From a phage: 64,000 bases of DNA. Positions within the stretch are counted from its first letter, which is position 1. Every line of letters starts with the position of its first letter. The stretch lies in the sequence record PX670417.1, one strand, 5' to 3'. Made by a program: the position numbers and the translations under genes. The notes under the pieces are model-generated. The model was given only the letters and a program-made list of their open reading frames with translations. It searched no databases and was not told the origin of the DNA. This document shows, piece after piece, positions 56,844 through 58,096 of the stretch.

Positions 56844-57215
56844 ATGAAGGCTAAGAGTGCAAAAGACTTTTATTGCTTCCTACAATCCTATATCAATTCC
56901 GTGGAGAAAGGTGATAGATATAATCTTAAAGATGTTATTGCATCACCTTTAACATGGAGACTTAGCAAATGGCCTGAAGAAGATATCACACCCACTAGTA
57001 AACAACCTACCTACATCCCAGATATTAATCTCCCAGATTCAGATAAGTTATTGTACCCAATGTTCCACATTGTTGGGCTTGGTACATTTCTTATGGATAT
57101 CCAGTATGTAATTGGTAAGGGTTATAAGGTTGAAGGTATCGTTGTTGGTGATGTATCTCCACAACATAAAGGCTATTTTAGATTAAACGCACGTTTAGAG
57201 GCTAAAAAGAAATGA
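56844..57215 (+). CDS. hypothetical protein, paralog of N-terminal domain of downstream Ig-like protein
   Basis: 123 aa; alignable to first about 120 aa of 57212-58096 (MKAKSAKDFYCF...DIQYVIGKG vs MIKAKTYPDFKEF...DLQYAIINGK). Confidence 0.5.
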   Translation: MKAKSAKDFYCFLQSYINSVEKGDRYNLKDVIASPLTWRLSKWPEEDITPTSKQPTYIPDINLPDSDKLLYPMFHIVGLGTFLMDIQYVIGKGYKVEGIVVGDVSPQHKGYFRLNARLEAKKK

Positions 57216-58096
57216 TTAAAGCAAAGACTTACCCAGACTTCAAAGAATTTGTAAAAGGTTTCGTTGCAAATGTAAAGGCTGGTAAGAGATATGATTTTAG
57301 AACATATCAAGAAGCTATTTTACCACTCACCTATAGCTCATATTGGCCTGAAGCTGATATTGCAGAGGTTGAGAAGTTTGACTACAAACCAGACTACAAA
57401 GTTCCTTTTAGTGATGAACTTCTTTACAGTGTTGGTGCACAGATGAGAACTGCTGATTTCTTCATGGATTTACAGTATGCAATCATCAATGGTAAAGATG
57501 TTGACACAGTGTATTGTGAATGGTTGGCAAGAGTTAAGCCGTTCTCAATGCTGAATGCTAAGCTGAAGGATGCCATTAAGCCACCAGTAATTACTCAGCA
57601 GCCAACAAACCAAACAGTCAATGAAGGTGGAGCACTTACCCTAAGTGTTCTCGCAACTAATGCCACTGGGTATCAATGGAAGAAGGATGGTGAGGATATC
57701 TCAAGTGCCACTTCTGCGACTTATACAAAACAATCTGTAGTACCTGCTGACGCTGGTTCATACACTTGTGTTGTATCTGGAGAGGGTGGAACAAGTGTCA
57801 CCTCAGATGCAGCAACAGTGACTGTGAATGCCTTACCAGTTATCACTCAACAACCATCCAATCAAGAAATCACTGAAGGTGATACCTTAACACTGAGTGT
57901 TGTGGCAACAGGTGCAACAGGTTACCAGTGGAAGAAAGGTGAGGAAGTCATCCCAGACGCAACTGCTGCAACTTACACTAAAGAAGGTGCAACCGCTGCT
58001 GATGCAGGAAGCTACACCTGTGTAGTAACTGGCGCAGGTGGCTCTGTAACATCTAATGCAGCAACAGTTACAGTTAACCCAACAGGGGAGGCATAA
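57212..58096 (+). CDS. protein with two tandem Ig-like (I-set type) domains
   Basis: Two repeats ITQQPxNQ...GxxLTLSVxATxATGYQWKKxxExI...ATYTKxxxxxADAGSYTCVV with classic Ig YxC motif. Confidence 0.6.
   Translation: MIKAKTYPDFKEFVKGFVANVKAGKRYDFRTYQEAILPLTYSSYWPEADIAEVEKFDYKPDYKVPFSDELLYSVGAQMRTADFFMDLQYAIINGKDVDTVYCEWLARVKPFSMLNAKLKDAIKPPVITQQPTNQTVNEGGALTLSVLATNATGYQWKKDGEDISSATSATYTKQSVVPADAGSYTCVVSGEGGTSVTSDAATVTVNALPVITQQPSNQEITEGDTLTLSVVATGATGYQWKKGEEVIPDATAATYTKEGATAADAGSYTCVVTGAGGSVTSNAATVTVNPTGEA

Follow-up and report, generated by a model that had tools for sequence, protein, structure and literature searches.

The closest described systems are the capsid decoration proteins Hex-Dec of phage Bas63 and gp20 of phage Sf14, both monomeric and Hoc-like, with flexible immunoglobulin-like (Ig) domains that gave no resolved density (PMC12609058, PMC11821841). 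Their capsid-binding domain (CapBD), situated at the N-terminus, sits as a plug in the middle of the facet-edge hexamers of a T=9 head and directs the Ig domains outward, the range of one to four such domains being already published (PMC12609058, PMC11821841). In Sf14 gp20, the residues Arg79 and Arg107 form salt bridges to Asp221 of the major capsid protein (PMC11821841). The Felix O1 protein gp36 (31.6 kDa) was detected with 14 peptides by mass spectrometry (MS) of CsCl-purified virions. The name Hex-Dec is found in the full-text literature in the Bas63 paper alone, whose authors regard the label 'tail protein', given to this protein in most genomes, as wrong. Capsid position, virion presence and late transcription are cited below from such published work on orthologs.

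The window analysed here, a stretch of 64,000 nucleotides of phage DNA (PX670417.1), belongs to Felixounavirus. More than 200 Felix O1-like phages with Salmonella, E. coli, Shigella and Citrobacter as hosts match the region under study at 91-97% identity, the best of these matches being Salmonella phage OPT-SAL01 (96.6%). What the present analysis itself determined is the homology of the genes and the architecture of their domains, together with their conservation and loss and the layout of the operon. We consider it highly probable that the region is a Felix O1-like head-decoration locus, in which one gene, ORF B, encodes a Hoc-like Hex-Dec protein and the gene before it, ORF A, an old, selected, late and dispensable copy of the anchor only.

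ORF A (56844..57215, + strand) encodes 123 aa (14.1 kDa, pI 9.1) and belongs to phrog_4463, annotated as 'unknown function'; ORF B (57212-58096, + strand) encodes 294 aa with a calculated mass of 31.4 kDa. A preliminary description, made from the letters alone, had placed two genes at 56844-57215 and 57212-58096, in exact agreement with the list of open reading frames, and had seen an endolysin next to them. A GH24 phage lysozyme (Phage_lysozyme, E=8e-41) indeed follows directly at 58096..58560 (+ strand) as the third gene of the unit. ORF A is preceded by an AAGGA Shine-Dalgarno sequence, and ORF B, which starts at an ATG of its own, by one that reads GAGG; the two genes overlap by ATGA, and the endolysin start overlaps the ORF B stop by 1 nt (TAATG). 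The counterparts of ORF A, ORF B and the endolysin are ORF37 (NP_944851), ORF36 ('tail protein', 294 aa) and ORF35 in Felix O1, gp21, gp20 and gp19 in Sf14, and ORF40c, ORF39c and ORF38c in VpaE1. Bas63 Hex-Dec, Sf14 gp20 and ORF B are alike in that their genes lie directly upstream of the endolysin and far from the structural module.

A hairpin resembling an intrinsic terminator, AGGGGCTAATGCCCCT with a T-rich tail behind it (56805..56820, + strand), separates ORF A from the ORF38 homolog upstream and delimits the A-B-endolysin unit on its 5' side; in Felix O1, the equivalent hairpin is listed among the terminators (PMC3185647, Table 2). The unit is closed by a second terminator-like hairpin followed by a T-run (58570..58587, + strand), whose equivalent is annotated as a potential terminator in the record of phage Barry. 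The sequence CTATTTATAAGGA behind the upstream terminator was considered as a shared motif of late promoters and rejected, as it occurs once in the window, below chance expectation.

For ORF B, a search of the PDB with phmmer returned chain S of 9NCF, the Bas63 'Immunoglobulin-like domain protein' (E=6e-248), and chain S of 9C2D/9C3A, the Sf14 'tail protein' (E=1e-169). The AlphaFold2 (AF2) model of ORF B (pLDDT 90 overall and ~96 in the Ig part) superimposes on 9ncf_S and 9c2d_S with a TM score of 0.95 and an rmsd of 1.3 Å, at an anchor identity of 97% and 89%, respectively. Residues 1 to ~123 (57212..57580, + strand) form the CapBD, in which both Arg79 and Arg107 are conserved. The major capsid protein of the window, the expected binding partner of ORF B (40743..41849, - strand, 368 aa), has Asp at residue 221. 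Bas63 Hex-Dec (9NCF_S) and Sf14 gp20 (9C2D/9C3A_S) resemble ORF B in CapBD, Arg79/Arg107 and I-set repeats, and the number of Ig domains is the sole difference (two in ORF B, four in Bas63, three in Sf14). ORF B is an ortholog of Bas63 Hex-Dec, Sf14 gp20 and Felix O1 gp36, and it is a member of the Hex-Dec/gp20 family, with all features that were checked by sequence or model present. From the orthologs and the virion MS of Felix O1 gp36, we infer that its product is located at the centre of facet-edge hexamers. The view of the preliminary description that the Ig domains decorate the virion fits these data, orthologs having been seen on the capsid by cryo-EM and gp36 in virions by MS.

A different placement, with ORF B as a tail protein whose Ig domains decorate the tail tube or sheath, could be read from the 'tail protein' label of most relatives and of phrog_3995, and from matches of the Ig region to PHROGs of major tail proteins. 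These tail matches are, however, confined to the Ig region of ORF B (residues ~96-213), while its N-terminal domain shares 97% identity with a chain that was modelled in the middle of a capsid hexamer; no tail tube or tail-associated core domain was found in ORF B. The solved capsid structures of the orthologs refute a tail location, which we regard as extremely improbable. The identity of ORF B as a Hoc-like head decoration protein, the variation in Ig number and the mislabelling are thus already known from published biology; what the preliminary description had called the protein of an accessory module is one that has been solved, named and placed on the head, not the tail.

The C-terminal part of ORF B consists of two Ig-like domains. 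The first (I-set/Ig_3, residues ~124-208; 57581..57835, + strand) is the ortholog of the first Ig domain in variants with two, three or four of them; the second, taken with a short C-terminal tail and the stop codon (57836..58096, + strand), is the ortholog of the last Ig domain in other variants and of the sole Ig domain of phage JH2. A Pfam scan, which the preliminary description had proposed, assigned two Ig_3/Ig_2/I-set domains at residues ~124-206 and 209-290 above the gathering score (Ig_3, E=6e-23), and Foldseek matched the ORF B model to tandem I-set Ig structures (Robo, MuSK, sidekick, titin) with a probability of 1.0. Identity between the two units amounts to 71% at the protein level and 67% at the DNA level, the register being 249-252 nt, and each contains the sequence D-A-G-S-Y-T-C (DxGxYxC motif), a conserved Trp and one Cys. 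Pfam, the mutual identity and the fold found with AF2 and Foldseek thus bear out two tandem Ig-like repeats with the YxC motif, as had been claimed. The single Cys per unit makes the canonical Ig disulfide impossible. When the DNA of the Ig units was analysed with TRF, no tandem repeat was reported and only short in-register seeds were seen, because the units are only about 67% identical at the DNA level.

Among 31 loci, the proteins of the ORF B family have lengths of 210/211 aa with one Ig domain, 294/298 aa with two, 372/377 aa with three and 461 aa with four. The first Ig domain of the window is 89-98% identical within the genus to the first unit of the two-, three- and four-Ig variants, and the second is 84-96% identical to their last unit, with one three-Ig locus lower, at 77%. 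For interior units, the identity to the first or to the second is about 70-77%. The single-Ig variants comprise JH2, which is of the 'last' type, one that is intermediate and one that is close to neither. This pattern suggests that Ig number is altered by gain or loss of interior units of ~83 codons, for which unequal recombination between repeats would be the simplest route.

By orthology, ORF B shares with T4 Hoc the monomer at the hexamer centre, built from a small globular anchor and a string of acidic Ig-like domains. Hoc is dispensable and has a presumed role in adhesion or aggregation; modelled on it, the Ig domains of ORF B may presumably serve weak adhesion or control of aggregation (PMC12609058, PMC11821841). 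The Ig region of ORF B also matches the Hoc-like PHROGs 2973 and 4069, within residues ~121-292 only. The domain order, by contrast, is reversed, as Hoc carries its Ig domains N-terminally and its anchor C-terminally; the Hoc anchor is topologically distinct from that of the ORF B type and without sequence similarity to it (PMC12609058), and unlike Hoc, the ORF B-type protein occupies facet-edge hexamers only and in a single orientation (PMC11821841). ORF B is therefore Hoc-like in its working and stands outside the Hoc family. T5 pb10 (5LXK, 8ZVI) has the same domain order as ORF B and a homologous Ig domain (E=4e-12 to 5lxk_A), one as compared to the two of ORF B. The pb10 chains match ORF B at residues 216-291 only, with no similarity detected between the two anchors, and the ORF A model gave no Foldseek match to pb10. 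We know of no Ig-less paralog beside pb10.

A distant homolog of the anchor (26-33% identity) is encoded upstream of the lysin in Kolesnikvirus, the group of Erwinia phage phiEa21-4 (e.g. Fifi318 gp116); it carries a Big_2-type domain in place of the I-set Ig domains, and no short paralog was found upstream of its gene. When a profile of the ORF A and ORF B anchors was searched against 1.84 billion representatives (50% clustering), only 12 clusters were obtained, of which five were traced, all of them to Ounavirinae-like phages. The modules found on the same anchor are one to four I-set Ig domains, a Big_2-type domain (Erwinia/Kolesnikvirus), another type of Ig domain, a Lys/Ser-rich tail and, in proteins of the ORF A type, nothing.

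ORF A had been described as a paralog of the N-terminal 120 residues of ORF B. In BLASTP, ORF A residues 1-119 align with ORF B residues 2-119 with 43/121 identities (36%), 55% positives and E=3e-16, and the PHROG profiles match crosswise, ORF A to phrog_3995, the family of ORF B (2e-15), and ORF B to phrog_4463, the family of ORF A (4e-16). ORF A also matches 9ncf_S and 9c2d_S in sequence (E=1e-11). Its AF2 model is of moderate confidence (pLDDT 61, pTM 0.64); Foldseek, run with this model, returned the CapBD chains 9c2d_S and 9ncf_S only (TM 0.65, probability 1.0) and no other significant PDB match. No Pfam domain was detected in ORF A, and the 123-aa protein stops at the domain boundary, without Ig-like domains. 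With similarity between the paralogs at E=3e-16 and an Ig fold at a Foldseek probability of 1.0, both findings that would have spoken against the preliminary description were absent, and its proposal of gene and domain duplication agrees with the pairwise alignment and the identity of the Ig units. A sequence-level duplication inside the anchor, suggested by the published pseudo-C2 lobes, was also considered and rejected: alignments of one half against the other scored like shuffles in ORF A and ORF B alike, so that the symmetry of the anchor is structural only.

An 87-kb metagenomic relative keeps the order of a short (122 aa) gene, a long (298 aa) gene and a lysozyme gene. Its counterpart of ORF A shows 46% identity to that of the window and its counterpart of ORF B 57%, from which it follows that the duplication is old and that ORF A has evolved faster than ORF B. 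The A-B-lysozyme arrangement is also kept in Mooglevirus (Sf14). Relative to the Hex-Dec/gp20 family, ORF A shares the homology to the CapBD and lacks both the Ig domains and the two contact arginines: Arg79 is replaced by G78 and Arg107 by Q107, with Q, H or R across the ORF A family. ORF A is basic (pI 9.1) as compared to the ORF B anchor (pI 5.5), and its family has an invariant segment of its own, LLYPMFHIVGLGTFLMDIQYV.

Of 253 matching phage records, about 233 have an intact ORF A, and its length in Felixounavirus, Mooglevirus and their relatives is 110-124 aa. The gene of phages mio and fBSPA4 is without its ATG, frameshifted and shortened by a deletion of ~220 bp; this deletion allele, 94-100% identical, is common to 19 records with E. 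coli, Salmonella and Shigella as hosts, and given its occurrence ORF A is dispensable. The allele, together with the faster evolution of ORF A than of the ORF B CapBD (46% as compared to 57% identity to the divergent relative; pairwise dN/dS 0.11 as compared to 0.045), might be taken to mean that ORF A is a functionless, decaying duplicate and a pseudogene in the making. A dN/dS of about 0.11 nevertheless clearly places ORF A under purifying selection, its frame and length are intact in most records, from at least two genera and the divergent metagenomic lineage, and it has a good Shine-Dalgarno sequence and a late transcript. We therefore consider decay very unlikely and retain the reading of ORF A as a selected copy of the anchor.

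In Felix O1, RT-PCR assigned ORF36 and ORF37 to the late class, maximal at 60 min, together with morphogenesis genes, and the flanking ORF35 and ORF38 to the middle class. A programmed -1 ribosomal frameshift at U AAA AAG before the ORF A stop, which would yield an A-B fusion with two anchors and the Ig domains, was also considered. With the ATGA overlap, the frame of ORF B is -1 relative to ORF A, a slippery-like AAAAAG run occurs in GCT AAA AAG AAA TGA, there is no stop codon between this run and the ATG of ORF B, and in other phages Ig domains are often added by frameshifting (PMC5009743). Relatives, however, read GCT GAA AAG, GCT AAT AAA or GCT AAG AAA at the run, some have an overlap of 8 nt or 1 nt with ORF B in a different frame, ORF B has initiation signals of its own, and Felix O1 gp36 has, at 31.6 kDa, the size of an unfused protein. 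As neither the slippery run nor the frame relation is conserved in relatives, the fusion was rejected as highly improbable, and ORF A and ORF B are treated here as separate products.

A discussion of ORF A was not found in the searchable literature. The terms 'paralog' and 'gp21' are absent from the text of both structural papers, and 'gp21' in the Sf14 supplement refers to SPP1 gp21 only. The ORF A ortholog of Felix O1, gp37, is absent from the list of virion proteins determined by MS, in which proteins with a coverage of at least 25% were kept, a threshold that weakens such negatives. Going by the main text of the VpaE1 paper, the proteins of its virion are those on the Felix O1 list with the addition of gp54, gp58 and gp68, which would exclude ORF40c, and the VpaE1 ORF table lists it as 'hypothetical protein'. 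Sf14 gp21 is missing from the table of structural proteins, and neither the text nor the supplement of that paper gives an MS result for it (PMC11821841). Orthologs of ORF A were not modelled in the cryo-EM structures of Sf14 or Bas63 (PMC11821841, PMC12609058), and according to the Bas63 paper, the hexamers free of Hex-Dec show no density, a distribution said to match that of Sf14 gp20 (PMC12609058). The weight of these cryo-EM negatives is reduced, since icosahedral averaging would smear out a monomer that sits on strict 3-fold hexamers. Together, the data suggest that ORF A is no stable or stoichiometric component of the mature virion. Of the earlier claim that ORF A is a further copy of the anchor, the paralogy therefore stands and the equivalence probably does not, given the loss of the contact arginines and the suggested absence of a stable place in the virion.

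These observations bear on an alternative in which ORF A is a second, Ig-less decoration protein that caps the 20 face-centre (true 3-fold) hexamers, so that ORF A and ORF B together would plug all 80. It is attractive because of the charge of ORF A and its residue changes at the gp20 contact sites: a basic protein would suit the Asp-lined hexamer centre (PMC11821841), and ORF A is altered exactly at the sites at which gp20 contacts Asp221, a residue reported to be displaced in the 3-fold hexamers (PMC11821841). The CapBD fold is kept in ORF A, at the confidence of its model (pLDDT 61), the strongly conserved segment LLYPMFHIVGLGTFLMDIQYV lies on its surface, and the Felix O1 orthologs of ORF A and ORF B are transcribed late together. 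Against it, cryo-EM was negative on those hexamers, though Sf14 carries gp21 (PMC12609058, PMC11821841), 19 natural isolates are without ORF A, and its orthologs are missing from the Felix O1 list and, going by the main text of the VpaE1 paper, from that of VpaE1, despite at least five good predicted tryptic peptides of ORF A (e.g. DVIASPLTWR, WPEEDITPTSK and VEGIVVGDVSPQHK). We judge such a stable cap to be unlikely.

In the mechanism that we prefer, with ORF B as the decoration protein and ORF A as its selected anchor-only copy, one ORF B monomer would reach with its CapBD of ~120 residues into the acidic middle of every facet-edge (pentamer-proximal) hexamer on the T=9 head, where Arg79 and Arg107 are expected to contact Asp221 of the major capsid protein, and its two acidic I-set Ig domains would project outward as a flexible fibre. 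Through its orthologs, this mechanism is all but established for ORF B, and no observation speaks against the assignment. ORF A goes back to an old tandem duplication of the anchor domain alone, and its translation is probably coupled to that of ORF B via the ATGA overlap. It may work in the infected cell during head assembly, tentatively on capsid hexamers or in the loading of Hex-Dec, where it could be a 'blank' cap, transient or of low occupancy, or could influence the sites at which Hex-Dec binds; we do not regard it as a decoration on display. There is some, rather modest, chance that ORF A is not a leftover copy but a functional 'blank' anchor that still targets hexamers, either the 20 at the face centres, with an occupancy that is low or disordered, or hexamer centres transiently during assembly, in a manner that would restrict Hex-Dec to the facet-edge hexamers.

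With its main component already explained, the residual novelty of the locus is the Ig-less paralog ORF A. For ORF B, the annotation is corrected: the product named 'tail protein' in most genomes of the Felix O1 type, those closest to the window among them, is a head decoration protein. Its anchor and Ig modules represent a known platform of the Hoc/pb10 type, which could be put to use in phage display on therapeutic phages of Salmonella and E. coli. If ORF A indeed targets hexamers, the locus would constitute a two-paralog system that patterns the display of Hoc-like fibres on a T=9 head and would help to explain why Hex-Dec is found on only 60 of the 80 hexamers, and natural phages without ORF A (mio, SP116, REP5-12 and others) could serve as controls. 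If it does not bind them, ORF A would be a case in which the domain of a structural protein has been recruited to a non-virion role.

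The short paralog (ORF A, 56844-57215, + strand), an Ig-less copy of the anchor domain of the Hoc-like head decoration protein ORF B (57212-58096, + strand), is destroyed by one common deletion allele in phage mio (positions 2306-2498 of L032, the mio locus compared with the window) and in 18 further phage records. In this allele the ATG is gone, frameshifts are present and about 220 bp are deleted; the phages carrying it had E. coli, Salmonella and Shigella as isolation hosts. Genes A and B of the Felix O1 type, with 85% protein identity, were also found at 143190-143558 of GenBank GU169904.1, a 147-kb record labelled 'Staphylococcus phage SA1', and their occurrence under a Staphylococcus label suggests, from sequence, that this assembly is chimeric or contaminated.

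In Kolesnikvirus, a group of Erwinia phages, the decoration-protein homolog combines the anchor with a Big_2 domain (Erwinia phage Fifi318, 2501-3115 of the compared locus L035; also MG589384.1). It is annotated as 'cgkA: kappa-carrageenase' in one record and as 'tail protein' in others, both of which are probably wrong. Within the window, the ORF at 59002-59424 (+ strand) encodes 140 aa, including 13 consecutive glutamates, and has homologs named 'D-alanyl-D-alanine carboxypeptidase' in several relatives; as the ORF yielded no Pfam match, this label looks unsupported.

A total of 24 tRNA genes are clustered at 48071-53552, and within this cluster lies a tRNA-like gene reported by ARAGORN as tRNA-??? 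with an abnormal 2-nt anticodon, 'ac' (49928-50002, - strand). Directly upstream, the cluster is adjoined by a gene (53718-55133, - strand) whose 471-aa product contains DUF2828 and DUF7788 domains. Relatives carry this protein under the name 'vWFA protein' or 'RNA-binding protein', and the annotation of the related phage Barry gives two ORFs in its place.

The Ig repeats of ORF B (57581-58096) matched the Aureispira grappling-hook protein GhpA (PDB 9FLP, chain A) in 10 stretches with an E-value of 1e-60. This match is far stronger than that to animal Ig proteins and suggests that a bacterial surface filament carries the same I-set subfamily as the phage decoration protein.
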